Source: a virus
Lineage: Duplodnaviria > Heunggongvirae > Uroviricota > Caudoviricetes
IMG/VR virus record: IMGVR_UViG_2693429668_000006
Length of the DNA stretch: 64,000 bases
Reading direction: 5' to 3' (one strand)
The position numbers and the translations under genes are program-made. The notes beneath the pieces are model-generated. The model was not told where the DNA came from and did no database searches. It was given only the letters and a program-made list of their open reading frames with translations. This document shows, in pieces, positions 3,369 through 63,190 of the stretch. Position 1 is the stretch's first letter; every line of letters begins with the position of its first letter.

Positions 3369-3427
3369 AGCCTGCTTCCGTATATTAATAATTAATATGT
3401 AGTTATTTATATATACAGAAGCAGGCT
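3369..3427 (-). terminator. composite hairpin element: 10-bp GC stem (AGCCTGCTTC/GAAGCAGGCT) around 39-nt AT-rich loop, T-rich tail on minus strand
   Basis: perfect inverted repeat immediately downstream of the stop of gene 3449-4042; second copy at 53541-53599. Confidence 0.5.
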
Positions 3428-40592: not shown

Positions 40593-40648
40593 GTTTACCT
40601 CATAATAATTATGTGTTACTTAACCAGAAAATAAATATTACTATAAAA

Positions 40649-40670
40649 GATAGGTAAGTAAAAACCTATT
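40649..40670 (-). promoter_or_regulatory. class-A palindromic motif GATAGGTAAGTAAAAACCTATT
   Basis: upstream of glutaredoxin gene. Confidence 0.45.
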
Positions 40671-40731
40671 TAATGTCTGCAATACATCGTAAACTTGCCT
40701 GTTAATCACAACTTAATTTAGTTAATATTTA

Positions 40732-42060: not shown

Positions 42061-42311
42061 GTTGTGCAGATTCGAAGCCTCTTTAAATTTTGCGCTGAAA
42101 ATTGTTATTTTACGGTAAGTAACGCTGTTTTCAGCGCATAAATGTCAGTGAATAATTTGATGCTTGCTGTAACGATGGTACGCTACGTAAAATCCGATAT
42201 TTATGAGACTGATTGCAGGTAAGGACTTACATAGCGCACAAAAATTGCTGATACCAGATGCAATATATGTTTAATGTCAAATTTTAGATAGGGGCGTATA
42301 CGCCCCTGTCA

Positions 42312-42866
42312 TTATTTTATTTTATCTTCTTCTAAACGAGAAAATTTAAATTGTTTATCGGTGATGGTGAGTAGTGTTACACCTTCCTTTTCGTGTAAAA
42401 GACCGGCACCGTTTGACACCATAATCAATCTATCCTTCCCTCGAAAGATTTCATAATATTTACCAGCTCCACAAGTTTTAGTTTCAATACAGTCCATGCC
42501 AGATACTGCTTCTCTGTTAAAAACACGATCTTTTGTAGCAACGGGTTTTCCGTACTCCTTTGTCAGCATTTCACTTATCTGGATGAATGTATACTTACCA
42601 ACATTACTGGTTAATGACATTTCGACTTTTCCGTCGATCAGGTTGCCATTCGTATGCGGTTCTTTTTCAGTCGGACTATTTTTATCTTGAAGAATAAACA
42701 CTTCAACATTTTGTGTTAGCTTCTTGAATTGGGCTTTATAATTTTGTTCAAGTTCACTTTTATCTTTGCCTATTAACGTTAATTCATCTATTTCAGATTC
42801 GTTACACCCTGTTAGTGTTAACGCAATTATTAGAGATGCGAAAATATTGAGATGGCACTTCTTCAT
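42312..42866 (-). CDS. lipoprotein (184 aa)
   Basis: signal peptide with lipobox LTGC; AT-rich. Confidence 0.55.
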   Translation of the reverse strand: MKKCHLNIFASLIIALTLTGCNESEIDELTLIGKDKSELEQNYKAQFKKLTQNVEVFILQDKNSPTEKEPHTNGNLIDGKVEMSLTSNVGKYTFIQISEMLTKEYGKPVATKDRVFNREAVSGMDCIETKTCGAGKYYEIFRGKDRLIMVSNGAGLLHEKEGVTLLTITDKQFKFSRLEEDKIK

Positions 42867-42982
42867 TAATTTGTCTCCATGTTTAACTGCTGCGATCTAA
42901 TCAGGAACATGAAGGCAGTCTAACGCTGCCTCGGATCAAAGCGATAAAACGATACGTGAATATAACTAAGTGTCAACAAATC

Positions 42983-45387: not shown

Positions 45388-46710
45388 TCATTCTTTATCT
45401 CCGATTCGATCTTCTGTATCGCGTAAGCAACGCGGCCATTTCAGTCGTGGGTGGCGTAAGCTGCCGTCCGGTGTTTTCTCGTGACAATGAACCTCAACAA
45501 TACGACCACGGTACTTCTCTTTGTTGTTCCAGATCTCGTCCAGATATTTATGCTTAATGCCGCTCGCACGAACAATCACACCGTTTTCAAGGCGAATAAC
45601 AATTTTTCCAAGCGTGTTGGCAAAACCAGAGTCCGGGTCGCCCGACTCAAAGTCGATAATTTCACCATCTTCTGAATCTTCGTCTTTTAACTTCCACCAG
45701 CTGCGGGTACGTTTAAACTCGTAAACAGAGTTCGGATCTTTGCCCATCTCCCCTTCTTCGTTATCGTCAAGGCGTTTCATGAAGCGTTCGATGAAGTCTT
45801 CGTGGCTATGGATGATATAGAACGGATGCAGGTGAATGTCTTGTGTGTAGCCTTCACTGCGATCGTTTTTGAACAACGCCACGAGAATAGCCAGGCGCTC
45901 TTTCAGCTTCATACCTGTCTTTGCATACTCTTTGGATTTAGCCTGTGCCCGCCATTCCGGTAGGAAGAAGTCGAAAACATGATAAATAGCGCCAATTGCC
46001 TGCACGTTCTTTTTGCGCAATGCAGATACGGACTGGTTAAATGAACCGGCTGTTCCTTCACCATCGAAGAAGATGTGTTTGTGGCCTGAAAGTTTGCCTA
46101 ATTCGAGCATTGCTGGCTTTAGGTGATCGAGAGACGTGATTGGATTACCAGTACGAGAAAGGAAGTTAACCTCTTCCTCGTCAACAATAACCTCGCAAAT
46201 TACTCGCAAACCATCGAGCTTAAGACTGCCAATCATCGGCCATTTTGCTTTAGGGTTTGGCTTGAAGGGGTATTTGTCGCCTTTTTCTTTATACGGTGAC
46301 GCCAGCTGCACCTCGAATTTCGGAATGGGATTTTCAAAAACCTTGTTGCATAGGCTAATCCCAACACCCGCTTTCGGGTCTTTTAAGAGGAAACGACGGA
46401 ACACGTCCTGCCCATCGGCGCACATTGACGCCACGATAGACTCAACAGCAGCTATTGCTGCGTTCCCCGTCAGCTCGCGAGAGGCCAGCTTATTCAGTAC
46501 ATCAATGGCTTTTTCGTCACTTGGGACGGACTCACTAAGCGGCTCTGCCACTTTGTATTTCTTTACCCCAAAACGGATGAAAGGGTTGAGCATCAATGAA
46601 ACCATGCTTTGTTCAAAGTCATCCATGTTGGCCAATGCCTCTTTTTTTGCATTGGTTCCCATAGCTTTCATTTCGTCCAGCTTATGCTTAAGTGCGATCA
46701 ACTTTTTCAT
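45388..46710 (-). CDS. ATP-dependent DNA ligase
   Basis: adenylation motif I KLDGLR; 440 aa. Confidence 0.8.
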   Translation of the reverse strand: MKKLIALKHKLDEMKAMGTNAKKEALANMDDFEQSMVSLMLNPFIRFGVKKYKVAEPLSESVPSDEKAIDVLNKLASRELTGNAAIAAVESIVASMCADGQDVFRRFLLKDPKAGVGISLCNKVFENPIPKFEVQLASPYKEKGDKYPFKPNPKAKWPMIGSLKLDGLRVICEVIVDEEEVNFLSRTGNPITSLDHLKPAMLELGKLSGHKHIFFDGEGTAGSFNQSVSALRKKNVQAIGAIYHVFDFFLPEWRAQAKSKEYAKTGMKLKERLAILVALFKNDRSEGYTQDIHLHPFYIIHSHEDFIERFMKRLDDNEEGEMGKDPNSVYEFKRTRSWWKLKDEDSEDGEIIDFESGDPDSGFANTLGKIVIRLENGVIVRASGIKHKYLDEIWNNKEKYRGRIVEVHCHEKTPDGSLRHPRLKWPRCLRDTEDRIGDKE

Positions 46711-48793: not shown

Positions 48794-50047
48794 ATGAAAC
48801 TCATAAAACCTTCATCGTTGCTGGCATTAGCTTTGCTTTTCGGCCCTGGATACGTTAACGCAGATAATAAACAAACGCTGATCGACGCCGCCACCGCAGG
48901 AGATACCACAGCACAAAGTGCGTTAGGGACAAATTATTTGGATGGGGCTAATGGCTTTGATGAGGATTTAGTAGAGGCCAAGAAGTGGATCGATCTCGCC
49001 GCAGAAAAGGGAGATAAAGTAGCATATTATGCGCTTGGGGTTATGTACACAATTGGGAAGGGAGTAGATAAAGATCTAAATAAGGCCGTTGAGTACTACA
49101 AACTAGCAGGAAATGCTCGCAACGGCAGTGCTTACCATAATCTTGCCGTTATATACGAACGAGGTTGGACTGGAAAGGAGGACCCAGAAGCTGCTTTAAA
49201 ATATCACAAACTAGCAGTAGAAGCTGGTGATATACCTTCGCTTGCCTATATGGGATATTTATATCAATACGGTAAGGGAGTTCCGAAAGATTACAAGAAA
49301 GCATTTAAATCTTATAAAAAGGCTGCGGATAGTGGAAATGCCGCAGGAATGTATGGGCTAGGCTCTATGTACGACGATGGTGTTGCTGTTAAGCGCAACA
49401 ATAAAGAGGCAATTAAGTGGTACTTGAAAGCAGCTGAATTAGGAAATAATAACGCCATGAGCGCGCTTGGATACAAGTTGATGCATGGAGAAGGTATAAA
49501 AAAAGACTATTCGAAGGCCAGAAGTCTTTTAGAACAAGCAATCAGCTTAGGAAATGATTATGCCATGAACCACCTTGGTTACATGTATCTTAAGGGATTG
49601 GGCGTCAAACAGGATTATCGGAAAGCATCAGAGCTTTACCAAGCTGCTTGCGATAAAGATGACGAAACGGGCTGCGAAAACGTTGCTGCAATGAAAGCAA
49701 AAGGTACGTTCCGTTCGCCTTCAAAACAGCAAAATGCCAAATCTGACACTCAGCGACTTATTGCTAAATCCATTGATAAAGGCGTTAACGCAACATTTAC
49801 CTGGCAGGGTGATGATGCCGTCTTCACCGCTAATGATGGCAAAGTTGACTGCACCTTCTTGAAGGATTTTTCAGAGAAAGGAGGCAATCTGGCTACCTCG
49901 TTTGTTTGCACCGATAACGTTCAAATCATCCTGAAGCAATTCAGAGATACCAAGAATGCCTACCTCGCGGTAATGACTGACAACTTCAACACAGAAGTTA
50001 AATCATTTTCGGTCAATGTTTACGTGACTAATACTGGTTCAAACTAA
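48794..50047 (+). CDS. secreted Sel1-repeat (TPR-like) protein
   Basis: signal peptide; tandem ~36-aa Sel1-like repeats (A..LG.MY..G.GV.KD...A..WY.KAA). Confidence 0.65.
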   Translation: MKLIKPSSLLALALLFGPGYVNADNKQTLIDAATAGDTTAQSALGTNYLDGANGFDEDLVEAKKWIDLAAEKGDKVAYYALGVMYTIGKGVDKDLNKAVEYYKLAGNARNGSAYHNLAVIYERGWTGKEDPEAALKYHKLAVEAGDIPSLAYMGYLYQYGKGVPKDYKKAFKSYKKAADSGNAAGMYGLGSMYDDGVAVKRNNKEAIKWYLKAAELGNNNAMSALGYKLMHGEGIKKDYSKARSLLEQAISLGNDYAMNHLGYMYLKGLGVKQDYRKASELYQAACDKDDETGCENVAAMKAKGTFRSPSKQQNAKSDTQRLIAKSIDKGVNATFTWQGDDAVFTANDGKVDCTFLKDFSEKGGNLATSFVCTDNVQIILKQFRDTKNAYLAVMTDNFNTEVKSFSVNVYVTNTGSN

Positions 50048-51220
50048 TGCTGCTATACCTTTTACCTTGCTTAAAAGTTCAAGCTGTCGTGAGTAAGGTT
50101 TTGCGCAATAGTAGGCTTTGATAATCTGCCCCGGTGTCGCATCGCCGGGGTCGAGTCCTTCCTCGCCCAAACACGCAACTTTGACATTAAGACCAATACT
50201 GGTCAGTCGCCTGGCTGCGGCCATCGTGTTTCGTATAGCTTGCTTTTCACTATCCCACATCATGATCACATTACGTAATCCACGCGCCTTGAGCGTCAGG
50301 AACGCGCCCAACTGATCTTCTGCATCCTGAGTGGTGTTGCCAGATAGATGCATCCCGAACGTTCCTATTGGCTCCACGTAATCACGTAATGTTTCTTCGT
50401 CGAAAATAGCTCGTTTGACCCCCATAACATCGAACGCACCCTCACAGACAACTACAGTCTGTTTGCCGACTGCATTATGGCCGTTGTAGAGAAATTTACC
50501 TGAAGCTGGAAGCTGCATAGGAAAGAGGTAGCGGCGTTCTGCTGTACCGGTAATGTCTCGTCCCTGAAATGTCTTCATTACCCCATCCAGATCGTAAACC
50601 GGTATCAGTATTCGCATATCGAATATCTGCCCTTTTACCTGATCTGTATACGGATCTACATAAGCGTGCTTGCCTTCGACGCAGTATCGTAGGTCAAAAT
50701 ACTTTGCCATTTCAGGTGATATGTTTCGTTCAACCAGATAGTCTGGAAGACGGCCATCTATAGGAAGCTCGTAATGACGAGGGAGTGCAACTGGCCCCTC
50801 TAACTCGACTGTGCTTGCAAGCACTAGCTCTTCTTTCTTTGGTGTCCACCCCTGGGAAAGAAGAGCGTTCTGCACATATTCCTCGAACTGTCGTCGTGAT
50901 TTACCGCTGTAGTGCTTGAGGAAGACCAGCTTATTGAACTGAATCTCTTCGGGATGATCACCAGCGAAGCATTTGCCGACGCCACTGGTCAGATTGAAAT
51001 ATACCTTCCAGTTGGAGCTGCCGCATACCGGACACTCTTTGATATTCACTTCACGACCGCGAGCACTCACGCCTCCACGTCGATAAACGATACCTTCAGT
51101 ATCCAACCATTGTTCAAAATCTAATTCGGCAATTAGCTCTTTCAGCTCGCTCACGATAATTCCACTTTTAACAGGCAATATTGTGACCAACCTAAATGTT
51201 GATATAACATAAAGGCTCAT
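50039..51220 (-). CDS. DnaG-like DNA primase (zinc finger + TOPRIM)
   Basis: zinc-binding CPVCGSSNW...GKCFAGDH; TOPRIM VVVCEGAFDVMG / MWDSEK; ATG at 51220 with conserved initiation context. Confidence 0.7.
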   Translation of the reverse strand: MSLYVISTFRLVTILPVKSGIIVSELKELIAELDFEQWLDTEGIVYRRGGVSARGREVNIKECPVCGSSNWKVYFNLTSGVGKCFAGDHPEEIQFNKLVFLKHYSGKSRRQFEEYVQNALLSQGWTPKKEELVLASTVELEGPVALPRHYELPIDGRLPDYLVERNISPEMAKYFDLRYCVEGKHAYVDPYTDQVKGQIFDMRILIPVYDLDGVMKTFQGRDITGTAERRYLFPMQLPASGKFLYNGHNAVGKQTVVVCEGAFDVMGVKRAIFDEETLRDYVEPIGTFGMHLSGNTTQDAEDQLGAFLTLKARGLRNVIMMWDSEKQAIRNTMAAARRLTSIGLNVKVACLGEEGLDPGDATPGQIIKAYYCAKPYSRQLELLSKVKGIAALV

Positions 51221-51301
51221 GTGTTTTTCTTTTGTGGTTTGGCAAAAGAAAAGTTGTTTCACCAATGAATCAAGCGTGGAGGTGTTCTCCACGCTTATTT
51301 T

Positions 51302-52642
51302 TTAGGTAACGTCTAAGATTCGCTCAATGAAGCGCATTTGTTCGAGGTTTTGTTTAACGCGAATGCTGATCCCTCCCTGCTGGTTACGTGAACCGGCAAA
51401 GTAGAGACGAGCCTCTCCTTTCGCTTCTTCTTCTTCGGTTTTGTTGATCGTTATTACCAGGTCAGCAATACGTACTTTTTCGATGTTGTCGGCAGCGTGC
51501 ATCATTGTGGCAACTTCTGACGCGCCACCTTCACGGTTTGTCTGCGATGCCGTGATCCCAGCAACGTTATGCTTGTCATAAAGAGCACGTAAATCGGTGT
51601 AGATACTACGAATGTTGGCGCGATCATCACGAAGGTCATAACTGGCACGCATCAAATCTGCGTAGTCGACAACAACCATGTCAGGCACCATGCCGTTGGC
51701 TTTCATGCTGTTAAGCATACGGTCCAGATCTGCCGGTGACATACTTCCTGACGGACGCTCAACAACCCACAAACTACCAATCCCCTTAGAGGCTCCCAAC
51801 TCTGCCAACTTACGATGAACTTCATCGCGCCGTTCCACCAACTTGGACATTTCCGTCTCCGACAATCTTGCATCAAAACGGTCGGACAAAATGTTGGTGT
51901 GAACCTCCAGCGAGAGATACAGAACATTGTAGCCAGCAAGCGTTGCGTTTATGGAAAACTCGCCCATTGCGGTCGATTTACCGGATTTAGCGAACCCCAT
52001 GAAGAGCACCATTTCGCGCTTTGCCCAGCCTTTTTGGTACAGCAACCTATCGAGAAGAGGGAGTCCAGTTGTAATACTGTTTGGTACATACTCCTCTGAA
52101 GCCTCATATTCACGCGCTTTCAATCGCTCACTTGCGGAGGTGTAGTAGTCATAGATTCCGGTCGCTTCGTTCGATCCAATCTGCTGAACCTTGGCCATGA
52201 TTGCCATCGCCCCCTGAAAGTCGCCCTTCTCTTTCAGTTCAGCAGCCTTAATCAGAGCATCATCAAACGCTACGCTTTTTGCGAAGGTTGATACCTGGTC
52301 AACCATGTACGAGGTATCGGACAATTTTTCTGCAAGGATGCGCTTAAACGCAACAACAACATCGGCGAATAGTTCCTCACGGATAGTCTTATCGCGTTTC
52401 GCACGCTTAAGCATATCCAGAATTGCAGATGAAGAGGGCGCGCTCTTGTACATACGGTAATAGCCCGAAACCATATTAACCAATATGGCATTGGCCGCAT
52501 TGGCAAATTGGCTAGGCACAACCAGATCTCCCGCACGAGTAAGAAACTCGTGATCACGACAAAAATATGCCGTCAGTCTGTTCTGGAAATCTTCATCAAA
52601 CTCTTCGGACAGCCCGCGTCCTGTATGGCAAAGTTCGGTCAT
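51302..52642 (-). CDS. DnaB-family replicative helicase
   Basis: Walker A GFAKSGKST, RecA-like C-terminal domain, 446 aa. Confidence 0.75.
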   Translation of the reverse strand: MTELCHTGRGLSEEFDEDFQNRLTAYFCRDHEFLTRAGDLVVPSQFANAANAILVNMVSGYYRMYKSAPSSSAILDMLKRAKRDKTIREELFADVVVAFKRILAEKLSDTSYMVDQVSTFAKSVAFDDALIKAAELKEKGDFQGAMAIMAKVQQIGSNEATGIYDYYTSASERLKAREYEASEEYVPNSITTGLPLLDRLLYQKGWAKREMVLFMGFAKSGKSTAMGEFSINATLAGYNVLYLSLEVHTNILSDRFDARLSETEMSKLVERRDEVHRKLAELGASKGIGSLWVVERPSGSMSPADLDRMLNSMKANGMVPDMVVVDYADLMRASYDLRDDRANIRSIYTDLRALYDKHNVAGITASQTNREGGASEVATMMHAADNIEKVRIADLVITINKTEEEEAKGEARLYFAGSRNQQGGISIRVKQNLEQMRFIERILDVT

Positions 52643-52655
52643 GTGCTTTCCTTTG

Positions 52656-52680
52656 TTTTTTAAACAAATTGTTTTCTAGT
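52656..52680 (-). promoter_or_regulatory. class-B palindromic motif TTTTTTAAACAAATTGTTTTCTAGT
   Basis: upstream of helicase start. Confidence 0.4.
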
Positions 52681-52685
52681 ATTAG

Positions 52686-53426
52686 TTAATTAGATAGGGG
52701 ATCAATAAACCGCCGTGCTTCTTCCAGTTCTTCTGGAAAGTGGGCGGAAATAAGGCGCTCTGGAACGATTTCCATTAGCCAGATAGCGGAGAAAATTGCG
52801 CGTATGCGCTTACTGCGAGGGATGGTGCGCAAACGCTCCAGAATCCACTCAAAATAGCTTTCCTGAATCGGGTTGAACTGCATGTCTCCCATATGCTTAA
52901 AGCTAACCAGAGAGTCATCCAGACGGGTTGTTGCGCGTCTGGCTAATTTCTCTTCAAATATCTCAATCAGTTCTGGCTGCCACAAATGCTGTGGGCGAGG
53001 CAGCTTGTCCCACAGACGTCGTGCAGCTGCGGAAAGAACAGTGGAGATAAAGTAGTCGTATGAGCAGCAATAGCGATCCGCAAACTGGCGTGCTTTCCAT
53101 AGCGACGTTTTATTAGCAGTCGACAACTCCTGATAAGGCAAGCGTTTTAACCCGGTGGTGAACGGAGCTGTTTCAAAGTGTTCACGACCGTGCGTCAGCA
53201 TGATATTTGAGTACTGACGTTTGTATGCCTCCGTAAACAGACAGGTGGCCATGAGAGGATGCATATCGCGGTAATCAAACCACTTCGTCTCAAACAGTTC
53301 AGCCTCGTCTTTGCAGCGCGACAAACCAATGTTTTCAGCAACCCACTTGTCCATAACAGCGGTATTCCACTCTGTCATGAAGTCGTACTGGTCGTTGTCG
53401 ATGGTATCGAAAAAGATTTGGCTCAT
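52686..53426 (-). CDS. hypothetical protein (246 aa)
   Basis: ATG at 53426 with AGGTGA RBS (track GTG start at 53435 rejected). Confidence 0.5.
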   Translation of the reverse strand: MSQIFFDTIDNDQYDFMTEWNTAVMDKWVAENIGLSRCKDEAELFETKWFDYRDMHPLMATCLFTEAYKRQYSNIMLTHGREHFETAPFTTGLKRLPYQELSTANKTSLWKARQFADRYCCSYDYFISTVLSAAARRLWDKLPRPQHLWQPELIEIFEEKLARRATTRLDDSLVSFKHMGDMQFNPIQESYFEWILERLRTIPRSKRIRAIFSAIWLMEIVPERLISAHFPEELEEARRFIDPLSN

Positions 53427-53437
53427 GTGGCTCACCT

Positions 53438-53459
53438 GGTAGGTAGTTACTTACTTATC
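53438..53459 (-). promoter_or_regulatory. class-A palindromic motif GGTAGGTAGTTACTTACTTATC
   Basis: immediately upstream of 53426 start. Confidence 0.45.
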
Positions 53460-53540
53460 ACAATGAGCGGATGATAGCGACTGGTGGCAGTTTTTGGAAG
53501 TGGAAACGGAAGGGACTTGTTCTGGTGGGTGTCTTTAAAA

Positions 53541-53599
53541 GACCTGCTTCTGTATATACAAATAATAAGTAACTTATTAAATACATACGGAAGCAGGTC
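53541..53599 (-). terminator. composite hairpin element: 10-bp stem GACCTGCTTC/GAAGCAGGTC around 39-nt AT-rich loop
   Basis: second copy of the element at 3369-3427; directly downstream of KAP-like NTPase stop. Confidence 0.5.
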
Positions 53600-53607
53600 A
53601 TAATCTA

Positions 53608-55314
53608 TTAATGATTGAGTATTTTATTAACACGCAGCTTATTAAGTGTTGATTTTGAAGCAACTTCCTCCAAAGCTTCTATTGCTTTATCAGTGATGCT
53701 CTTCTGTTCGTCTGTCGGGTGTTGCATACCCTTGAACTTGAGCATAGTCTCTTCTACTAAATTCAAAGCATCCTGATCACAGGATAATATCCAGTTTACG
53801 TAATCATCTTTAGAAAAACTGTTAAGAATATTCACATCACTATGGTTAAATCTTCCACCAGCTATTTTTTTTATAATTTTATCTAAGTTATAGTCATCTG
53901 GATTTCTATCTTTCAATTTTTTTTCAATTCTGAAACCTAATTCTTCATTTCCGAAGATCTCTACTCGCAAAGAATTAAATGTAGCATACGCATTGTCTTT
54001 ATTAACAAAAGCATCTGCATATGCCTCTATAATATTATTACAATCTCTATCCAATTTGATTAGGACATTTATTAAACCTACGAACTGTCCAATTGGTATA
54101 CGCAACAGACTATCGTTAATTACGCGCTCAATTTGAAAAATAAACTCTGATTCATTATCTTTAAAAGAGTTTCTAAAAACATCCCAAATTTTATAAACCT
54201 CACATAAAACCCTATTATCTCTATATTGTTCATTTTTTTCTTTTATTATATTTAGAATATTGCTTTCAGAAGACACATAACCGTTCTTAAGGTAAAAATC
54301 TATATCATCATCGAAAGCACTTTCTGCTCGTTCATAAATAATATCAAGGCTATTAACAAATGAATATACAGAGTTAACTTCTTCCTTTTCATCTTTATCA
54401 TCTAACATATAGTCGAATGCATGTATATTTTTGATTGACTCCTTAAATGAAGCATAATCAACGCTAGGAACACCAAAATAGTAAACCACTGAAAATAAGA
54501 CCAATCTATTAATAAAACTTTCTCTAACCTTATCCTCTGCTAACTTTAGCACATCTCTAAATATAACTAGAGATGATTTTATTTTATTTAATATTCTAAT
54601 GTTTTTGATGTTTAAATCATTTGCTAGGTTTTTTAACAAAAGAAAATCAGGGTCAGTCTCATAAAAAACTTTTCTTAAGTTTTTCTCAGGCGTGGGATCG
54701 TATTTTATTTCCACATCAATTATTTTTTCTCTATACTCTAAAAACTGTTGTTGTGCAGTTTCTTCATGTAAGTTATCTTCATTTAATATTAGAACAACCT
54801 TGCAATTTTTTCTTCTTGCCAACTCATCAATTACCCCCATAATCTCTTTAATTTCTAGCGCACTACCTTTTCGTTCAATATCATCAATGCAAACCAAATA
54901 ATTATTAACAAATTTATACTCAAGAGATGACAGCAGATTATCAGTTTTGAACCCAAAAAAATCGTTCTTTCCAAAATGTATTAAAAATTTTGACAAGGAG
55001 TTGTATTTCAACCATCCCCAAAACCCATTTCTATAACGAATCATAGTTCGATCCGTTTCAGATAAAATCAGTTCTTTATATTTCTTTTCATTAATTGGTG
55101 TGGCACAATGATAAAGAGCTTTTTTAATGTCTCCAATAGAATTTATTCCAAACAAAGAAACATATGAATATGCATTAAAATCTAATTTTTTAGAATGTTT
55201 AGTATAAAAGCTATTCCAATAATGCGTTTTACCTACTCCCCAATTTCCTTTTATGACAGCAACCCGATGATCTGAGTCCAAAAAATTTTTTAAAAATACT
55301 TCTATCGATTCCAT
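53608..55314 (-). CDS. KAP-family-like P-loop NTPase (568 aa), AT-rich accessory gene
   Basis: Walker A GNWGVGKT (GxWGxGK[ST]), Walker B LVCIDDIERK (hhhhDD[LI][DE]R); strongly AT-rich. Confidence 0.55.
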   Translation of the reverse strand: MESIEVFLKNFLDSDHRVAVIKGNWGVGKTHYWNSFYTKHSKKLDFNAYSYVSLFGINSIGDIKKALYHCATPINEKKYKELILSETDRTMIRYRNGFWGWLKYNSLSKFLIHFGKNDFFGFKTDNLLSSLEYKFVNNYLVCIDDIERKGSALEIKEIMGVIDELARRKNCKVVLILNEDNLHEETAQQQFLEYREKIIDVEIKYDPTPEKNLRKVFYETDPDFLLLKNLANDLNIKNIRILNKIKSSLVIFRDVLKLAEDKVRESFINRLVLFSVVYYFGVPSVDYASFKESIKNIHAFDYMLDDKDEKEEVNSVYSFVNSLDIIYERAESAFDDDIDFYLKNGYVSSESNILNIIKEKNEQYRDNRVLCEVYKIWDVFRNSFKDNESEFIFQIERVINDSLLRIPIGQFVGLINVLIKLDRDCNNIIEAYADAFVNKDNAYATFNSLRVEIFGNEELGFRIEKKLKDRNPDDYNLDKIIKKIAGGRFNHSDVNILNSFSKDDYVNWILSCDQDALNLVEETMLKFKGMQHPTDEQKSITDKAIEALEEVASKSTLNKLRVNKILNH

Positions 55315-55365
55315 TGGTGTCTATCCTTCAACTCATATATTGGGCGTAACAAACGCCCAATATAA

Positions 55366-55725
55366 TCACCCTTTCTTCATCAACTCGCGTTTAATTTCAT
55401 CGGTACGCATCGTGACATCGGCAGCTGTGATCGCCTCGTTAAGTTTCACGATGTCCTCGATTTCCTGCGGTGTCTTCTCCGCAAGATGGAAAATAGCAGC
55501 ACGAATCACGTCAGAACGAGTGAACTTCTCGAAGCGAGGGATGAACTTCATCATCTCCAGCAGTTCGAAGTATTCGTCCTCCAGTGACATTGTGCGGCTT
55601 TTAATTTTCTCTTTGCCACGAGTCGGGCGTCCCTGTGGTCTGACTGGTTGGCGCAAAGGAGTTGTGTTCTTAGCCGGTGCATCAGGCTCTTTGCGCTTTG
55701 CTAGGTCACCCATTTTCATGGACAT
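55366..55725 (-). CDS. small partition partner protein (ParG/ParB-like candidate, 119 aa)
   Basis: translationally coupled downstream of parA; basic N-terminus. Confidence 0.4.
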   Translation of the reverse strand: MSMKMGDLAKRKEPDAPAKNTTPLRQPVRPQGRPTRGKEKIKSRTMSLEDEYFELLEMMKFIPRFEKFTRSDVIRAAIFHLAEKTPQEIEDIVKLNEAITAADVTMRTDEIKRELMKKG

Positions 55726-56393
55726 TATTCTTCTTCCTCCAGACTCAACAGATAATCTACAAATTCTTCAAACTCGGCTTCCGCCTTTTTGTCGCGCTCG
55801 CTACCGGTCATTTCAAAGATAGAACGACCAGACTCTTCCGCATCATCATAGACGTTGCGGTTATATAGATTGACTGGCGCAGACTCGATGCCAAACGTCT
55901 CAACAATCTCTTTAGCCGCCAGAATGCGAGACACTTGTGATGGCAAAGCCGGGCACTGGTTCATGACCGCGCGGACCTTCACTTTATCGTTTACATTACG
56001 AACATTGTCGATAATAGGATCGATGTCACGCAGAGATTTCAAATCACGACGCTTAGGACGAAGCGGGATAATGATAACGTCGGCCATCAGCATCGCTTGT
56101 CGCTGAATTTCGGAGTCAAAGCCACCAGCATCTACCACTACAAACTCAGCTCTACCCTGAAGCGATTTTAGGTGCTTAATGATGTCATCCTGAACGTATG
56201 CAAAAGGAATCAGCTCAAGGTCTTCGTTCTGTCGACGGTCTTCACACCAGCTTGTTGTCGTGCGCTGAATATCTATATCAGTGATATAAACCTTCTTCTT
56301 CTTTTTGACTTTCAGGCAAACGGCAATTTGCTGGGCAACGGTGGATTTGCCAGGCCCGCCCTTTGTGCCGCCAACCACAAAGATCTTGGTCAT
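55725..56393 (-). CDS. parA: ParA-family partition ATPase
   Basis: deviant Walker A VVGGTKGGPGKST; 222 aa small-ParA size. Confidence 0.8.
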   Translation of the reverse strand: MTKIFVVGGTKGGPGKSTVAQQIAVCLKVKKKKKVYITDIDIQRTTTSWCEDRRQNEDLELIPFAYVQDDIIKHLKSLQGRAEFVVVDAGGFDSEIQRQAMLMADVIIIPLRPKRRDLKSLRDIDPIIDNVRNVNDKVKVRAVMNQCPALPSQVSRILAAKEIVETFGIESAPVNLYNRNVYDDAEESGRSIFEMTGSERDKKAEAEFEEFVDYLLSLEEEE

Positions 56394-56425
56394 TGGAGAG
56401 TTCCCTTTGCGTCTATTATTATCGT

Positions 56426-56450
56426 CTGAAACAACTTGTTTTCTTATATG
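56426..56450 (-). promoter_or_regulatory. class-B palindromic motif CTGAAACAACTTGTTTTCTTATATG
   Basis: upstream of parA. Confidence 0.4.
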
Positions 56451-56711
56451 TGATATAGCCTAAATGCCTACGGCTACGGTGTAAAGGTTAAATGGTAGGT
56501 TGTGGTTAACAATTGGCAATCATAGCTTGTATTTGTCTGTTGAAAAAAGTAACAATGACCTCTATATTACAAGTACGGTGATATGCCGTACACAATTTGA
56601 TAATGCACACGTAATGGGCTATAGCCTTTTAAAGTAATTTTTGAGTCGAAAACTCAGTTTGAACAGAGGAGATTGATGGCCTTCCTACATCACGGCCATC
56701 AGGAGGAATAC

Positions 56712-56981
56712 ATGTCAGCACTAAAAAAGCAGCGCATCGATTTGAGATTAACCGATGACGATAAAAGCATCATCGAGGAAGCTGCCGCAATGTCTAACCA
56801 GAGCATTACTCAGTTTATGGTTAGCAGTGCATCTGAACGTGCCGTGAAAGTTATAGAGCAACACCGTAGACTAGTTCTGAATGAAGAATCCTGGAATCTG
56901 GTTATGGACGCTATAAGCAATCCTCCGGCACCGAACGACAAGCTGAAACGAGCTGCTGATCGTCTGAAAAGCATGGAGTAG
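56712..56981 (+). CDS. tacA: TacA-like antitoxin (DUF1778, RHH)
   Basis: ATG at 56712 after AGGAGG RBS; typical TacA N-terminus MSALKKQRIDLRLTDDDKSIIEEAAA. Confidence 0.7.
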   Translation: MSALKKQRIDLRLTDDDKSIIEEAAAMSNQSITQFMVSSASERAVKVIEQHRRLVLNEESWNLVMDAISNPPAPNDKLKRAADRLKSME

Positions 56982-56988
56982 TTTACTC

Positions 56989-57510
56989 GTGAGCAATACA
57001 ACGATAGAGATTTTCTCTGGAGAGAAAGATTATGATCTAAACGGTTTTGATTGCGGCGAAGAGTCACTAAACGCCTTTTTAGCCAACCACTTAAAAAGGC
57101 AGCATGAGGGAAAAATTCTTCGTGCTTATGTGCTTTGCACTCAAGAAGAAAGGCCAAAAGTGTTAGGATATTACACTTTGTCAGGTAGTTGTTTTGAAAA
57201 GGAGTCCTTACCTTCAAGAAGCAAACAAAAGAAGGTTCCTTATCGGAATGTTCCAAGTGTTACTTTGGGTAGGCTGGCTTTGGACAAGTCCCTTCAAGGT
57301 CAAGGATTTGGCTCAATGCTTGTAACACATGCAATGCGCGTTGTGTACAATGCATCTCTTGCTGTAGGCATTCATGGACTTTTCGTTGAGGCGTTAAATG
57401 ACAAAGCCAAGGCGTTTTATAAAAGTTTAGGCTTTATCCAGCTGGTTGGTAACAACGAGCGTTCTTTGTTCTATCCTACAAAATCTATCGAAAAATTGTT
57501 CGAAGAATAA
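56989..57510 (+). CDS. tacT: GNAT acetyltransferase toxin (TacT-like)
   Basis: GTG start 8 nt after tacA stop; GNAT acetyl-CoA motif (RLALDKSLQGQGFGSMLV). Confidence 0.7.
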   Translation: MSNTTIEIFSGEKDYDLNGFDCGEESLNAFLANHLKRQHEGKILRAYVLCTQEERPKVLGYYTLSGSCFEKESLPSRSKQKKVPYRNVPSVTLGRLALDKSLQGQGFGSMLVTHAMRVVYNASLAVGIHGLFVEALNDKAKAFYKSLGFIQLVGNNERSLFYPTKSIEKLFEE

Positions 57511-57542
57511 TGTGTTCCCCTCATTTGAGGGGAACTTCGACA

Positions 57543-57758
57543 TCACCAACCACAAACCCTCTCTCCCATCGTATTGTGAAAAAGGATTTGGCGTTCGGTT
57601 TCTTCAGTCATTACATCATTATTGCTGATATAGATAGGCTCAGCCCCATCGCAGAACAACACGCTGGCTGTTTGTGGTTTAATGACGCACCCACTTATCA
57701 TACAACTCACGATGAACGGCAGAAGCATCTTTCTGACGTATTTTACTGCTCGTCTCAT
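57543..57758 (-). CDS. o-spanin (Rz1-like lipoprotein), embedded out of frame in i-spanin gene
   Basis: signal + lipobox MISGC; overlaps 57679-57930 in another frame. Confidence 0.45.
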   Translation of the reverse strand: MRRAVKYVRKMLLPFIVSCMISGCVIKPQTASVLFCDGAEPIYISNNDVMTEETERQILFHNTMGERVCGW

Positions 57759-57930
57759 TCACCACTTTCACTGTGTTTTGAAGTCGTTTTCTGTCTTCCT
57801 GTTTTGCCTTCTCTTCCATTGCTCGTCGCGCCGCATTCCCGCCCATCGTGTAAGCGCCGACAAGAACGAAAAGAACGGCAGCCAGCGTAATCAAAGCAAC
57901 TTTTAGCTTTGTCATCAGGCTGCCTAGCAT
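57679..57930 (-). CDS. i-spanin (Rz-like)
   Basis: N-terminal TM helix then charged coiled-coil. Confidence 0.5.
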   Translation of the reverse strand: MLGSLMTKLKVALITLAAVLFVLVGAYTMGGNAARRAMEEKAKQEDRKRLQNTVKVVNETSSKIRQKDASAVHRELYDKWVRH

Positions 57931-57931
57931 A

Positions 57932-58651
57932 TTAGACCATCCCTTTCTGGTGTTTTCTTACCTGCGACCAGGCAATGAATCCTGCCACAACAATAGTGGC
58001 AATACCGAAGATGATGCGTACTGTATCCCCGCTAGAGATATGACCTTGTGCTTTATCCATAGCAGCGGAAACCTGCGGCATAACATCGGCCAGCTGCGCC
58101 AGACCAATACCTGCTGTAACAGTTGCGCCTGCGGTTTCTTTAGTTACAGGAACAGCCTTCACGGTTTTCACCGGCTTAACAACGCCAGCTCGACGCAGAC
58201 CTTCCTCAATAACTTCTGCCGCATACCAGGTGTTCAGCGTTTTTAGCGGGCCTCGGCCATTCTCGTGGCGAATGATTGCCTCAACCAAAGGTCGAAGGAT
58301 GTCGTAATCATGCAGATCGATGATCATGTCTGCGGTTACACCAACGGCTTTAGACACCTCATTAATGTAGGCGTCAGTATTGTTTTCATTCGGCGGTGCC
58401 CAGCGTTCAATAACTTCACGAATGGTATCGATACTTGTGCCGTCTTTTGCGCGACGTTTATCGTGGTAGGTAATTAGAGTCACCGCCAGCGCACGAATCC
58501 CCCAAACAGGGTCTTTAAACGTGCAAAAGCGCGGTTCGTCTGGATTCGCAACCAGACCTTGCCACGGTGATCCTTTATCAAGATTACCGGGGTTATTATT
58601 ACGAATGCCTCTCGGAGTCTTCATCCTTGATCTCCTGTTATTGCAGTCCAT
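57932..58651 (-). CDS. putative lysin (peptidoglycan hydrolase candidate) with C-terminal hydrophobic segment
   Basis: position between holin-like and spanin genes; IRNNNPGNL motif; call is contextual. Confidence 0.4.
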   Translation of the reverse strand: MDCNNRRSRMKTPRGIRNNNPGNLDKGSPWQGLVANPDEPRFCTFKDPVWGIRALAVTLITYHDKRRAKDGTSIDTIREVIERWAPPNENNTDAYINEVSKAVGVTADMIIDLHDYDILRPLVEAIIRHENGRGPLKTLNTWYAAEVIEEGLRRAGVVKPVKTVKAVPVTKETAGATVTAGIGLAQLADVMPQVSAAMDKAQGHISSGDTVRIIFGIATIVVAGFIAWSQVRKHQKGMV

Positions 58652-58961
58652 TTTTTACGCCATACGCGGCTAACCCCAAAAGCAGTGCAGTAATAATGAA
58701 CGACGTTATTTTAGAAACAATGCCGCCAAAGAACCCACTGGAGATGGAATCTAACCGGTTAAGGAGCTTGTCCAGGTTGGAGTGTTGAATACTATGTTGC
58801 GCCGGGGTCATATCACCAAAGTAGGTTTTCAGCTGATCATTGACCTCCTGGCCAATTTCTTCACGTAGCTCTTTGCCTAATTTGCCAACAACCTCCCGAG
58901 CAACGATCGCGGCAATACGCTCAACTTGCTCTGTTGTAACGCCCGCCATCTCGTTCGACAT
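58638..58961 (-). CDS. holin-like small membrane protein
   Basis: 107 aa, C-terminal TM helix; first gene of lysis cassette. Confidence 0.4.
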   Translation of the reverse strand: MSNEMAGVTTEQVERIAAIVAREVVGKLGKELREEIGQEVNDQLKTYFGDMTPAQHSIQHSNLDKLLNRLDSISSGFFGGIVSKITSFIITALLLGLAAYGVKNGLQ

Positions 58962-59022
58962 GTTTTCCTCCGTGAAAAGTCAAATCGGGATGGCGGATTT
59001 ATATCACACTTCTCCTTTTAAT

Positions 59023-59047
59023 TGTAGGTATATACTTACCTACCTAT
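59023..59047 (-). promoter_or_regulatory. class-A palindromic motif TGTAGGTATATACTTACCTACCTAT
   Basis: upstream of lysis cassette. Confidence 0.45.
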
Positions 59048-59164
59048 ACATATACCGTTTAACGGTTGTTCATATTCGCATCTAGTAACTCACTAATATA
59101 TCCCTATGATTGCGGCTGTGAAATCGCATTTTTAAACCACACAGCCATATAAATAATGTCTAAA

Positions 59165-62100
59165 TCAGTTACTTGTTGCCCCAACAGTACCTGCAAATTT
59201 CAGCCATTGACCTGACGGACTTCTATTACTACGGTAGTGATAAACGAGGATTGCGTTTGTAATCCCACCATAGTCAGCTTTGTGTGACGTCGTTAAACGA
59301 ATTGTATAATCACCGTTAGGTAGATTAAAAACTTCGATTATAGATTCTGCTAATTCTACAGCACCAAATCCCGTTATATTGTTGATACTGCCAGCATTGA
59401 ATCCCATAGCATCGCCAAAGCCAATCCAATAACTTTTGCTAAACGCCCCATTTGATTTTAGGTGGCTAATGAATGCGGACAAGCTCATGCCCATATCCCC
59501 ACCTGAAACAGAGGAAGTTCGCACAGTCATACTTGGAAGAGCACTGCTCTTCACATAGGAACTTAGAAGGTTTGTTACCTCTGTTTTCGTGTAAGCATTA
59601 AGGTTAGCCGCAGTCAAAGTTATATCGGCAGAGCCATCAAACGCCACACCAGCAATTTTCCTTGCTGTCTGCAATTTTGTGGCGGTTGCGGCATTACCAG
59701 TAGTGTTCTGGTTCCCATCTGCATTCACACCTGGAATGCTGTCTTTTTTAGTATATATCTGAGTCCAGTCCTCTTCGAACCCATAGCCATCACGTGATGA
59801 ACGGTAATACAATCCACCATTTTTATAATGCGCTCGGATTTGGAGAGTCCGACAACTACCTACGCCTATATAAAAATTTGCAACGATATAAGAATCCCCG
59901 GAGCGTGTAACATTATACGCACCTGATTCGGCATTCCACGGGACCGCACCACTAGCATCGGCATAAGTTCCAGTAGCGCGTCGAGCAAAAGCAGATACAT
60001 TTGCAGCTGTTAGTGTTATATCAGCAGAACCATCAAAAGACACGCCGCTTATTTTTCTAGCAGTTTGCAACTTCGTAGCTGTTGAAGCATTACCGTTCAA
60101 ACTACCATTTACGCCACCAGTAACATTTAGTCCATTACCAATGGACACAGCACCGCTGGTATTATTAATTGTAATAGGTCGCAAACCGTTCCATGAACCT
60201 AATGTGTCTCCTGATGCTGTTAGCATGAAATATGTGTTCGATCCATCATTACGGATAAAGAACCCAAAGCTACCGTAAGCAATGCGGAAACCATTTGCAT
60301 ATTTTGAAACGATCTCACCAGAAGACGTTAATCCGCCAGTTAACGCTCCTCCAGATAGTGGTAAAGCTCCGACATCAGCCGCAGTAGGCTTGTTTTTAGT
60401 GTTATACGCTCTGCGCCATCCTGGTGAATAGCTCGTCCCGTTAAATACATAGATAAACTCCGCATTAGTGAGAGCACCAGAGACACTCGCCGTTGTGGCC
60501 GTTGTTATACGGATCGTATAATTGTTTGAGCTACTACCGTTATTAAATACCTCTATAACAGCTCCTGCTAATGGAATAACGCCACAACCAGTTTCACTAT
60601 TTGGTATGGTTGCACTATTGGCATAGGCCCACGCACATCGAGCAATCCATGACTTTGTGTTAAATGCTCCATTATTTTGCAATAACGTCACTAACTGTGC
60701 TGTTGTTATTGCTCCGCCATTACTTCCTGTAGTTAACCAACCAGTAGGAGATGCCGGGCAACCTATATTTGCTGGCGACAAGGAAATATTTGCCGAGCCG
60801 TCAAACGACACCCCATTGATAGTACGCGCAGTCTGCAACTTCGTAGCAGTAGCCGCGTTGCCCGTTGTATTCTGATTACCAGTCGTATTAACACCTGGCA
60901 AATTAATATTCGCAGTACCATCAAAGCTCACGCCGCCGATAGTTCTTGCCGTCTGAAGTTTTGTAGCAGTTGCAGCATTACCAGTGGTGTTCTGATTACC
61001 CGTAGTGTTTACACCTGGAAGGTTAATATTTGCAGAACCGTCGAAAACAACTCCACCGATAGATCTTGCCGTCTGCAATTTCGTGGCTGTACTTGCATTA
61101 CCATTCAATGAACCAGTTAATCCACCTGTAACAGACAACGGACCTGAAACTGTTCCTCCGGTTGTTGGCAGTGCTCCAATATCTGATGGTGTAGGTTTCT
61201 GATGTGAGCTATACATCGTATAAACAACACCATCGGTAACGCTGGAAGGCTTACTCGCTGAATATGTTGGCGAGGTATAAATAGAAACTGTCGCATTTGC
61301 AGTACAATCCCAATGGATATTTACACGAGTCGCATAATTGCCAATCTCAACGTAAATATCATATGTATCGCCGGATGTGTTGATCCAGGCGAAATTCGTT
61401 AATCCGACAGCTGTACGCTTCCACAAAGCACCTGTAATCCCTTTGGGGTTTCCATTGCCTGCTCGTAGAACCAGTTCTGAAATGCCTGCCTGATGTGGGG
61501 AGCCGACGTTGTAACCAGCGCCACCAATCAATGCGATGTAAACGATGGAACTCGCTTGTGGCATGGTAACCGTAGCCAGTTTGAACCACCCTGCCCCGCC
61601 AGAGAAAGACATCGTTACTGAATTTAAAGTACCAATATCTTTCGGCGTTAATGTGATATCCGCAGTCAGTGCTTTACCGTTAACTTTTCGGTTAGATGGC
61701 ACCCTGCTATTCGCATTGTCATTGGCTGCTTTAACTGCTTTTGGCGTTGCGGCCAGCGATTCACTGGTGCTGTCGACAGCACTGCTAAGTTTCACAACAC
61801 CTTTAGTTGTAAGGCTTGCGTCTTCCATCGCAACTGCACCGGCAATCTCTTCAGCACGATCAGCAGCAGCTTCCGCACGGGTCGCAGCGGATTCAGCAGC
61901 AGTTTTGCTCTGAGATGCTGCCGTCGCACTGCCTGCCGCCTCTGTTGCTTTCGTGGATGCCGTCGTGGCACTGCCCTTCGCTGCTGACGCCTGTCTGGTC
62001 GCCTCATCTTTTGAAGCAGACGCAGATGATGCCGATGACGCCGCCGAACTGGCGGACGATGCGGCAGCCGTTTTTGAGGATTCTGCGCTGGTTTCCGACG

Positions 62101-63190
62101 CTTTCGCGTTCGTTTCGGATGTCTTCGCTGCGGAAGCAGACCTCGCTGCTGCGCTAGCCTGTTCAGTGGCTTCGCCAGCCTTCGTTGTGGCTGTTGAAGC
62201 AGACGATGCGGCACTTTCTGCCGATTTTCCGGCGGCGGTGGCACTGGCTGAGGCCTGCCCGGCACTTGTTGACGCGGCACTGGCAGACGACGCAGCCGCT
62301 GTTTTTGAGCCTGCCGCAGCTGAGGCACTCTGTGCTGCTGCCGTCTCAGAAGACTTAGCGTTCGTCTCGGACGTTTTTGCCGCCTTCGCGGAATTGCCTG
62401 CCGCTGTTGCCGAGGAGGCTGCACTACTGGCGCTCAAGGATGCGTTCGTTTCTGATGATTTCGCTGCCTCTTTTGAGGCCGCCGCATCCCGGGCTGAGGT
62501 GGCAGCTTCTGACGCTTTCGTGGTCGCGGTGGATGCAGAAGTGGCTGCTGATTGTTGTGACGCTGCGGCATTCGTTTCAGATTTTTTCGCAGCAGTTGCA
62601 CTCGCACTTGCGGCACTTTGTGAGGATGCCGCAGCGGATGCACTTTGAGACGCTTGAGAGGCTTTTTCTCCAGCGGTATTGGCGCTTTCTGCTGCTGCGG
62701 CAGCACTGGCCGCTGCCTCACGAGCTTTGTCGCCAGCAGCATCAATCGCGTCAGTGTTATTTTTATACCACTCAACGTTTTCGTTGTGCTCGTTGACGAT
62801 CTGCATTAGCGGCTTAACGGTTACTTCTGTACCGTCTTCACGCTCGATTGTCACCTCATCCAGAGCAGTCAACCAACTGCGCATAGACTTGGAATCAGCC
62901 GACATACGCGACATTAGTGCTGTAAAGCGCGCGCTAAACTGTGTTAAGTCGCCTTCATAGGTCGTAATGATTCGGCACGGAACCTCAGACTGAGTTTCGC
63001 CGGTATAAGGTTCTGAGAGAACAATATTCGTATCGCTTATTACGCGCTTGATCTCATACAGCTTATTGTCGGGGCCAATGACGATCATCCCCGGCAACAC
63101 ACCATTAGCTGTTACGTTCCAGGCTGTCCCTGCCCCAACCAGAGTATTGCTACCCTGTGTAAATGTGATAGTACCTTCCCTGTACCACAT
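59165..63190 (-). CDS. tail fiber protein (1341 aa) with Ala/Ser-rich coiled region and T4 gp34/gp37-type fiber repeats
   Basis: ~200-aa Ala/Ser/Thr/Lys low-complexity segment; repeated GNASTATKLQTAR.I.GV.FDGSA.I.L units (>=5). Confidence 0.8.
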   Translation of the reverse strand: MWYREGTITFTQGSNTLVGAGTAWNVTANGVLPGMIVIGPDNKLYEIKRVISDTNIVLSEPYTGETQSEVPCRIITTYEGDLTQFSARFTALMSRMSADSKSMRSWLTALDEVTIEREDGTEVTVKPLMQIVNEHNENVEWYKNNTDAIDAAGDKAREAAASAAAAAESANTAGEKASQASQSASAAASSQSAASASATAAKKSETNAAASQQSAATSASTATTKASEAATSARDAAASKEAAKSSETNASLSASSAASSATAAGNSAKAAKTSETNAKSSETAAAQSASAAAGSKTAAASSASAASTSAGQASASATAAGKSAESAASSASTATTKAGEATEQASAAARSASAAKTSETNAKASETSAESSKTAAASSASSAASSASSASASKDEATRQASAAKGSATTASTKATEAAGSATAASQSKTAAESAATRAEAAADRAEEIAGAVAMEDASLTTKGVVKLSSAVDSTSESLAATPKAVKAANDNANSRVPSNRKVNGKALTADITLTPKDIGTLNSVTMSFSGGAGWFKLATVTMPQASSIVYIALIGGAGYNVGSPHQAGISELVLRAGNGNPKGITGALWKRTAVGLTNFAWINTSGDTYDIYVEIGNYATRVNIHWDCTANATVSIYTSPTYSASKPSSVTDGVVYTMYSSHQKPTPSDIGALPTTGGTVSGPLSVTGGLTGSLNGNASTATKLQTARSIGGVVFDGSANINLPGVNTTGNQNTTGNAATATKLQTARTIGGVSFDGTANINLPGVNTTGNQNTTGNAATATKLQTARTINGVSFDGSANISLSPANIGCPASPTGWLTTGSNGGAITTAQLVTLLQNNGAFNTKSWIARCAWAYANSATIPNSETGCGVIPLAGAVIEVFNNGSSSNNYTIRITTATTASVSGALTNAEFIYVFNGTSYSPGWRRAYNTKNKPTAADVGALPLSGGALTGGLTSSGEIVSKYANGFRIAYGSFGFFIRNDGSNTYFMLTASGDTLGSWNGLRPITINNTSGAVSIGNGLNVTGGVNGSLNGNASTATKLQTARKISGVSFDGSADITLTAANVSAFARRATGTYADASGAVPWNAESGAYNVTRSGDSYIVANFYIGVGSCRTLQIRAHYKNGGLYYRSSRDGYGFEEDWTQIYTKKDSIPGVNADGNQNTTGNAATATKLQTARKIAGVAFDGSADITLTAANLNAYTKTEVTNLLSSYVKSSALPSMTVRTSSVSGGDMGMSLSAFISHLKSNGAFSKSYWIGFGDAMGFNAGSINNITGFGAVELAESIIEVFNLPNGDYTIRLTTSHKADYGGITNAILVYHYRSNRSPSGQWLKFAGTVGATSN

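Follow-up and report, generated by a model that had tools for sequence, protein, structure and literature searches.

A KAP-family NTPase gene as candidate defence cargo in a variable slot of SSU5-family phage-plasmids

The DNA analysed is a 64,000-nt stretch, hereafter the window, of a Caudoviricetes record in IMG/VR (IMGVR_UViG_2693429668_000006). On its minus strand, at 53608–55314, it carries a gene for a 568-residue P-loop NTPase of the KAP family, which was found as the single cargo gene in a variable slot of SSU5-family phage-plasmids, with a foreign base composition and with alleles exchanged between closely similar backbones. We consider it moderately probable that this gene is single-gene defence cargo directed against phages or competitor elements. 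This reading draws on the KAP-type NTPase itself, its relative among the PADLOC candidates and the sharing of the slot with validated and candidate defence genes, as well as on the exchange of alleles with a hypervariable C-terminal half, the foreign composition, the moron positions of prophage-borne homologues, and a published precedent (PMC12632615). The original prediction, made from the sequence alone, had proposed a horizontally acquired single-gene immunity or abortive-infection module. Its first part is retained here as a candidate, based on the family, the foreign GC content and the hotspot, while abortive infection is indicated by nothing in the present analysis.

The KAP gene and its family

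The open reading frame (ORF) starts with ATG, preceded at 9 nt by an AAGGA Shine–Dalgarno sequence. As had been read from the sequence originally, it spans 568 codons and encodes an N-terminal Walker A motif, GNWGVGKT (residues 23–30, nt 55225–55248), and a Walker B motif, LVCIDDIERK (residues 140–149, nt 54868–54897). Both elements of the KAP signature invoked at that time, GxWGxGKT in Walker A and DDIER in Walker B, are present, and residues G23, W25, G26, G28, K29, T30, D144, D145, E147 and R148 are invariant across 64 diverse homologues.

The gene has a GC content of 29.5% and a third-codon-position GC content of 23.9%, compared with 47–50% in the primase, DnaB, SSU5_038-homologue, parB-like and parA genes. 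In a windowed GC profile, the segment at 53600–55365 appeared as a sharp foreign block (29.7% versus a mean of 45.5%) and as the lowest 1.7-kb stretch of the 64 kb, with z = −4.9 computed against 35 non-overlapping windows, which bears out the earlier remark that the gene is far more AT-rich than the flanking replication genes.

The search against Pfam that had been suggested as a check returned KAP_NTPase (PF07693) above the gathering cutoff, although weakly (26 versus 20 bits, E = 6.6e-6), over residues 18–258 and profile positions 22–282 of 293. The same family is precomputed on nearly all homologues, which are labelled as P-loop NTPase fold proteins in RefSeq. The companion check against defence-system profiles yielded a single PADLOC match, to the candidate PDC-S49 (E = 2.1e-21, 74 bits), covering residues 3–347 and positions 8–346 of 624 of the profile; a match was therefore obtained, but only a partial one to an unvalidated candidate. 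All 64 homologues also match PDC-S49, with a best E-value of 2e-29. In PHROGs, the protein belongs to phrog_4740 (E = 2e-165), which is of unknown function. A search with the family profile retrieved 1,655 clusters at E ≤ 1e-30, and the 150 best matches are nearly all full-length proteins of 530–607 residues that align end to end, with few fragments, so that the family is both large and fixed in architecture. The NCBIfam search gave nothing meaningful, the family profile found no sequence match among all chains of the PDB at E ≤ 1, and the Pfam nSTAND3 profile remained below its cutoff (19.6 versus 27.2 bits), over residues 15–67 only.

Seven chromosomal homologues were inspected in their genomic context. 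All are solitary genes, and no neighbour is common to these seven loci and the SSU5-like plasmids, which is the pattern of a single-gene system. Two belong to Pseudomonas prophages and are placed between the early genes and an S24-family repressor gene, i.e. in a moron position; one further homologue adjoins an OLD-family nuclease gene and another IS66. At the three loci with a measured composition, in Pragia, Oleispira and one Pseudomonas prophage, the homologue is more AT-rich than its surroundings. The two Pseudomonas prophage homologues (L011, 10001–11740; L013, 8001–9737) share about 31–33% identity with the window protein and are encoded on the strand opposite to the adjoining S24-peptidase repressor.

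The variable slot and its exchanged alleles

Region 50000–59000 of the window matches SSU5-family phage-plasmids. The phage relatives comprise Salmonella phage SSU5 and Escherichia phages Cyrano (pLF82), PhiR41_1 and CMS-2020a, and a total of 721 PLSDB plasmids of about 105–115 kb, mostly non-mobilizable, match the same region; their hosts are Escherichia, Klebsiella, Enterobacter, Salmonella and Shigella. On the minus strand, parA is followed in order by a parB-like gene, the KAP gene, a homologue of SSU5_038, a DnaB-like helicase gene and a primase gene. The KAP gene occupies a slot at 53600–55365, on both sides of which homology to relatives with other cargo ends. In alignments with Cyrano, PhiR41_1 and SSU5, homology passes through a hairpin, ceases at about 53600 and resumes at 55366, with the stop codon of the parB-like gene. 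The left flank of the slot is formed by the conserved 119-residue parB-like gene (55366–55725) and parA (55725–56393), and the right flank by the likewise conserved SSU5_038 homologue (52686–53435, 249 residues, of unknown function), followed by the helicase and primase genes; all are on the minus strand.

Between these flanks, Cyrano and SSU5 have a DUF2971 gene, the product of which matches PDC-S31, another PADLOC candidate (E = 3e-41), and PhiR41_1 carries, on the opposite strand, a gene for a GIY-YIG protein matching PD-T4-3 (E = 1.6e-23). PD-T4-3 is also listed in a DefenseFinder survey of SSU5-group plasmids. It is reportedly an E. coli defence gene that was selected and validated experimentally by Vassallo and colleagues in 2022. 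The cargo genes are thus unrelated and mutually exclusive, and include a validated defence gene. As a marker of the backbone, the SSU5_038 homologue was found by tblastn at ≥80% identity in about 726 PLSDB records, whereas full-length KAP homologues occur in about 114 PLSDB plasmids. PD-T4-3-like genes at ≥95% identity occur in 135 PLSDB records and the Cyrano-type DUF2971 gene, at the same identity, in 26, with many further distant copies. Only one of the 11 related phage records, CMS-2020a, has a full-length KAP gene. The gene is therefore accessory and not, as would have spoken against the original prediction, a conserved core gene of related phages.

On these alignments, we regard the slot as a recombinational cargo hotspot that extends from the terminator of the par operon to the terminator hairpin of the backbone. 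It resembles the P2/P4 hotspots (Rousset et al. 2022, PMC9122126) in its conserved flanks, its exclusive cargo including validated systems, the AT-richness of that cargo and its recombinational exchange. It differs in belonging to an SSU5 phage-plasmid, in lying between a partition operon and replication genes rather than at cos/int, and in holding mostly single-gene cargo. A preprint on hotspot annotation makes no mention of SSU5 or KAP.

Four classes of KAP allele, all with a GC content of 30–31%, were found in this one slot: the window type, present at 99–100% identity in four plasmids, and classes at 77%, 44% and 39% identity to it. The ~77% class occurs in E. coli and Shigella sonnei (e.g. 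in p09EL50 of O104:H4), the 44% class in Salmonella and the 39% class in Klebsiella. The flanking proteins are 98–100%, 88–95% and 86–93% identical, respectively. Relative to p09EL50, synonymous divergence (dS) is 0.58 for the KAP gene and 0.04–0.14 for the flanking genes, i.e. 4–15 times higher in the former, which indicates that the allele was swapped in by recombination instead of diverging in place. Rapid evolution in situ as the sole cause of divergence was ruled out for this E. coli pair on the same grounds. In comparisons with the plasmids from Salmonella and Klebsiella, dS has reached saturation throughout, and the nonsynonymous divergence (dN) of KAP, 0.50–0.55, is 5–10 times that of the flanks.

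The KAP gene is a mosaic, with far greater divergence in its C-terminal than in its N-terminal half. Compared with the ~77% allele, residues 1–258 are 90.7% identical, with residues 61–150 reaching 97–99% at the nucleotide level, while residues 351–568 are only about 57% identical and show the highest dN/dS. Across the gene, dN/dS ranges over 0.09–0.34 and amounts to 0.22 for the full length against the same allele; values below 1 point to purifying selection on a working protein. The allele pattern as a whole reads as what we term an arms-race signature.

Two hairpins bound the slot. The first, a backbone hairpin on the minus strand at 53541–53599, has 18-nt arms that are 89% complementary and enclose an inner palindrome, and is followed, as minus-strand RNA, by UUUU (ΔG = −28.3 kcal/mol, z = −7.25). 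It is kept whatever the cargo in all four genomes aligned (the window, Cyrano, PhiR41_1 and SSU5), and looks like a terminator that insulates the slot from the promoter region of the SSU5_038-homologue, DnaB and primase genes. Its existence had been recognised originally, but its interpretation as a cassette boundary does not hold, since it is conserved backbone independent of the cargo. A second copy was observed at 3369–3427, with the core CCTGCTTCYGTATAT ... ATATACRGAAGCAGG and similarity reaching into the flanks, in the intergenic space between two minus-strand ORFs. Four matches to the hairpin arm were found compared with 0.14 expected by chance, and the two hairpins could represent a terminator family or a protein-binding palindrome of the phage-plasmid.

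The second, a hairpin with a 12-bp stem, lies on the minus strand at 55336–55364 (ΔG = −17.9, z = −4.8). It begins 1 nt after the stop codon of the parB-like gene and lies about 20 nt ahead of the KAP start codon. Its core is the palindrome ATTGGGCGT-N5-ACGCCCAAT at 55341–55363, 10 bp to the right of the approximate position given at first (55331–55353). A differing GC-rich hairpin stands at the same site in p09EL50, the Salmonella and Klebsiella plasmids, Cyrano and PhiR41_1, and the one in Salmonella is a canonical terminator with a U-run. As each variant has its own hairpin there, that at 55336–55364 is likely the terminator or attenuator of the par operon, and not the end of a cassette as previously proposed. 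Beyond the two hairpins, the cassette showed no direct or inverted repeats of the kind expected at the ends of a transposon or integron; insertion by a dedicated mobile element was therefore rejected in favour of homologous exchange via the conserved flanks. An Rfam scan of 52500–57000 returned no credible RNA family, the hairpin giving only a spurious microRNA match (22 bits versus a cutoff of 84).

The position of the gene would also suit a role in maintenance of the replicon, in which the protein would act as a third NTPase with the ParA/parB-like or replication proteins, either as a regulator of partition or replication or as a component of a lysis–lysogeny switch. The gene comes directly after parA and the parB-like gene, across a spacer of about 50 bp in which no promoter was found, and probably shares their transcript, and one of the chromosomal homologues has a ParA-like gene 0.5 kb away. 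We nevertheless consider such a role very improbable. KAP is missing from about 85% of the plasmids with the same backbone, which have unrelated genes instead, and a terminator hairpin separates KAP from the par genes in every variant. The composition is foreign, dN exceeds that of the backbone genes by the factor given above, and six of the seven chromosomal homologues lack par or rep neighbours.

Fold, comparisons and proposed mechanism

The AlphaFold2 model (mean predicted local distance difference test score of 85.5) depicts a soluble protein with two parts. The N-terminal NTPase domain and its helical lid (residues 1–258, minus strand, 54541–55314), which includes an insert of about 108 residues (31–138) between Walker A and Walker B, has an AAA+/STAND-like fold. 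Its best structural matches are Cdc6/Orc1 initiators and the DNA-bound AAA+ filaments of TnsC/MuB, a similarity that is generic for AAA+/STAND proteins. The C-terminal half (residues 259–568, about 310 residues; minus strand, 53611–54540) is all-α and solenoid-like, no enzymatic fold was found in its model, and it is the most divergent, mosaic part; on this model, we consider it a putative sensor or specificity module. No 19-residue segment exceeds a Kyte–Doolittle value of 1.6, the insert included, and the protein thus lacks the transmembrane helices in or near the NTPase domain that are typical, but not universal, in KAP proteins. This does not exclude KAP membership, because PifA also lacks such helices (PMC13001434).

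Proposals that KAP NTPases are conflict proteins date back to 2004, and PifA is the classical example. PifA of plasmid F, the founding bacterial KAP NTPase, excludes T7 and T3 upon triggering by gp1.2 and gp10, with membrane leakage; it is a KAP protein without transmembrane helices that excludes T7 (PMC13001434). The window protein resembles it in its Walker A (GxWGxGKT) and Walker B (DD[LI][DE]R) motifs, in the absence of transmembrane helices and of an effector, and in being plasmid-borne and encoded by a single gene, and on F the pifA gene is also found beside toxin–antitoxin, rep and par genes. PifA differs in its 741 residues, its unrelated C-terminal region and its repressor partner PifC, compared with 568 residues and a parB-like upstream neighbour here. 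The PADLOC hidden Markov model (HMM) for PifA has no match to the window protein at E ≤ 1 and matches one of the 64 homologues (E = 2.4e-4). PDC-S49, described by three HMMs of about 620 residues, likewise consists of a single gene of similar length with a KAP-type N-terminal NTPase, and differs in the C-terminal half, the match ending at residue 347.

The best functional analogy, judged by description, is provided by proteins of the EF_KAP type. EF_KAP and three metagenomic KAP P-loop NTPases defend Enterococcus faecalis as single genes, with up to 6-log, Walker-B-dependent and non-abortive protection (PMC12632615, a 2025 preprint). EF_KAP is likewise a single KAP NTPase followed by a region of about 320 residues without known domain, and differs from the window protein, which has no transmembrane helices, in its two N-terminal ones and its Bacillota host. 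The tripartite layout of effector, NTPase and repeat sensor of STAND/Avs proteins (Avs1–5, bNACHT and NLRs) was not found, as the window protein has no N-terminal effector (Walker A starts at residue 23), is much smaller and has the KAP Walker B DDIER. QatA is a KAP-type ATPase as well. No Qat HMM was among the PADLOC matches to the window gene, whose neighbours are par and rep genes rather than those of QatABCD.

If the gene acts in defence, STAND and AAA+ proteins, PifA and Tmn suggest the following mechanism by analogy. In the plasmid (lysogenic) state, the protein would be produced in small amounts, probably through read-through of the par operon, and its variable C-terminal solenoid would recognise a protein or nucleoprotein complex of an invader. 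Recognition would switch on the conserved NTPase (K29, D144/D145/E147 and R195/R240), and the protein would probably oligomerise, as STAND and AAA+ switches do. As the protein lacks any recognisable nuclease, TIR, Sir2, protease or membrane domain, the NTPase-driven step may itself be the effector, whether it remodels or sequesters its target or drains nucleoside triphosphates (NTP). The host, and hence the resident phage-plasmid, would be protected. A bolder version, which we advance only tentatively and regard as rather doubtful, concerns the family as a whole (at least 1,655 clusters at 50% identity): its soluble KAP NTPases, devoid of an effector, would act as one-protein immune sensors, with the rapidly exchanged solenoid setting specificity and the NTPase executing a non-abortive block, and the window protein would be the first member to be recognised in a phage-plasmid lineage of wide clinical occurrence. 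If so, a block by remodelling, sequestering or NTP drain would differ from the membrane leakage of PifA and from the nuclease and TIR effectors of STAND proteins.

The resemblance of the N-domain to Cdc6/Orc1 and TnsC/MuB would also fit a function in competition between elements, with the NTPase keeping out related phage-plasmids, conjugative plasmids or satellites, by superinfection or entry exclusion or by interference with the initiation of foreign replication. A module of the Orc/Cdc6 type could act on DNA-bound initiator complexes, the gene lies between the replication and partition modules, its alleles are exchanged among closely related phage-plasmids, and in the case of PifA, the exclusion of phages has been described as "likely not the primary function" (PMC12632615). 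We rate this alternative as unlikely.

Several points weigh against the reading as defence cargo. The Pfam score is weak beside the 148 bits obtained with PifA, and the direct similarity to PifA is marginal and confined to the NTPase domain (about 23% identity over 245 columns, BLASTP E = 0.14; hhalign probability 46%, E = 2e-4). The coverage of about 54% of the PDC-S49 profile, at a modest score, places the protein in a sister clade instead of the core of PDC-S49, itself a "phage defence candidate" for which, as for the present family, no published validation or anti-phage phenotype was found in the literature. Three of the seven chromosomal homologues are isolated AT-rich insertions amid housekeeping genes and not in defence islands, and DefenseFinder-based surveys of SSU5 plasmids do not include this KAP family. 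The mechanism is guesswork because no effector domain is recognisable. Finally, no σ70-like promoter was detected upstream of the ATG, with site counts at chance level in the promoter scan, and a terminator-like hairpin stands 5′ of the gene, whose expression we can only infer. A gene this AT-rich may moreover be silenced by H-NS in E. coli. The simplest reading of the sequence is that KAP is probably expressed by read-through from the parA/parB-like operon. An annotation of the Klebsiella KAP gene in which it overlaps the parB-like gene, suggestive of translational coupling, was rejected, as the N-terminus of the family corresponds to an internal methionine 45 nt downstream.

A selfish or neutral passenger, i.e. 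a spreading AT-rich gene that is silenced or brings no benefit, or else a counter-defence factor, would be in keeping with the high AT content, the missing promoter and effector, and the uncharacterised family. It would accord poorly with purifying selection over the full length (dN/dS as above), catalytic residues that are invariant across the 64 homologues, a large and uniform family, and intact ORFs in more than 100 plasmids, and we hold it to be improbable.

That KAP NTPases can act in defence (validated in 2025), that the wider family is a PADLOC candidate and that temperate elements have defence hotspots was already known. The placement of this KAP family in a defined hotspot of SSU5 phage-plasmids is new, as are the evidence for allele swapping and mosaicism and the finding that the protein is soluble and without a recognisable effector. 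Phage-plasmids of the SSU5 type occur commonly in E. coli, Shigella sonnei, Salmonella and Klebsiella, and outbreak and multidrug-resistant lineages are among their hosts. If the cargo of the slot decides the phage resistance of the host, it matters for phage therapy and for the competition among mobile elements. The family is large, uniform and unvalidated, and was overlooked by DefenseFinder-based surveys. The natural allele series in near-identical backbones (NTPase about 91% and residues 351–568 about 57% identical) is suited to mapping specificity determinants and to asking how an NTPase without recognisable effector blocks phage.

Neighbouring genes and further variable sites

On the far side of parA, a TacA/GNAT toxin–antitoxin pair and a lysis cassette follow, so that the gene does sit near the partition and toxin–antitoxin genes originally named. 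ParA matches the Pfam families MipZ, AAA_31 and CbiA, while the Pfam scan of the 119-residue parB-like protein gave no match. Both proteins are 99–100% identical to those of p09EL50, the KAP protein of which is about 76–77% identical. In phage Cyrano, the 119-residue gene is labelled as "RelE/ParE putative toxin"; the label looks unreliable, given that no Pfam match was obtained and that a ParB or centromere-binding partner is expected at that position.

The interval between parA and the lysis cassette (56400–57930) is a second variable slot. It holds the TacA/GNAT pair in the window, Cyrano and p09EL50, two unrelated genes without Pfam or PADLOC match in SSU5 and PhiR41_1, and a single 183-residue gene on the opposite strand in a Salmonella plasmid. 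Over 49000–60000, the window is identical base for base to pTIC (MF554642.1), except for a single 689-bp block at 56819–57507 (68369–69057 in MF554642.1), which has equal length in both and contains 509 mismatches. In the window, this block encodes the 3′ end of the TacA antitoxin gene and a TacT/KacT-like GNAT toxin, an arrangement shared with p09EL50 and Cyrano; in MF554642.1, it encodes AAC(6′)-Ib-cr, the ORF of which shares its end base with that of the GNAT toxin in the window. Such a precise swap at equal length is unusual and suggests that either the window or the MF554642.1 record is an edited or engineered version.

Elsewhere in the window, a second AT-rich island at about 40400–42900 (GC below 36%) adjoins a tyrosine recombinase gene (39033–40136). 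It contains ORFs of 442 codons (40732–42060, plus strand) and 184 codons (42312–42866, minus strand), neither of which gave a match in Pfam or PADLOC, and the island may be a further site for cargo. A GC-rich stretch at 61650–62820 (above 56% and up to 61%, over a background of 45%) falls within a 1341-residue tail-fibre ORF (59165–63190) and may be a recombined host-range segment. Neighbours of the replication module include genes for a Sel1-repeat protein (48794–50047) and an ATP-dependent DNA ligase (45388–46710). The former protein has 417 residues, six Sel1 repeats and an apparent signal sequence, and the end of its gene overlaps that of the primase ORF, on the opposite strand, by 9 bp.

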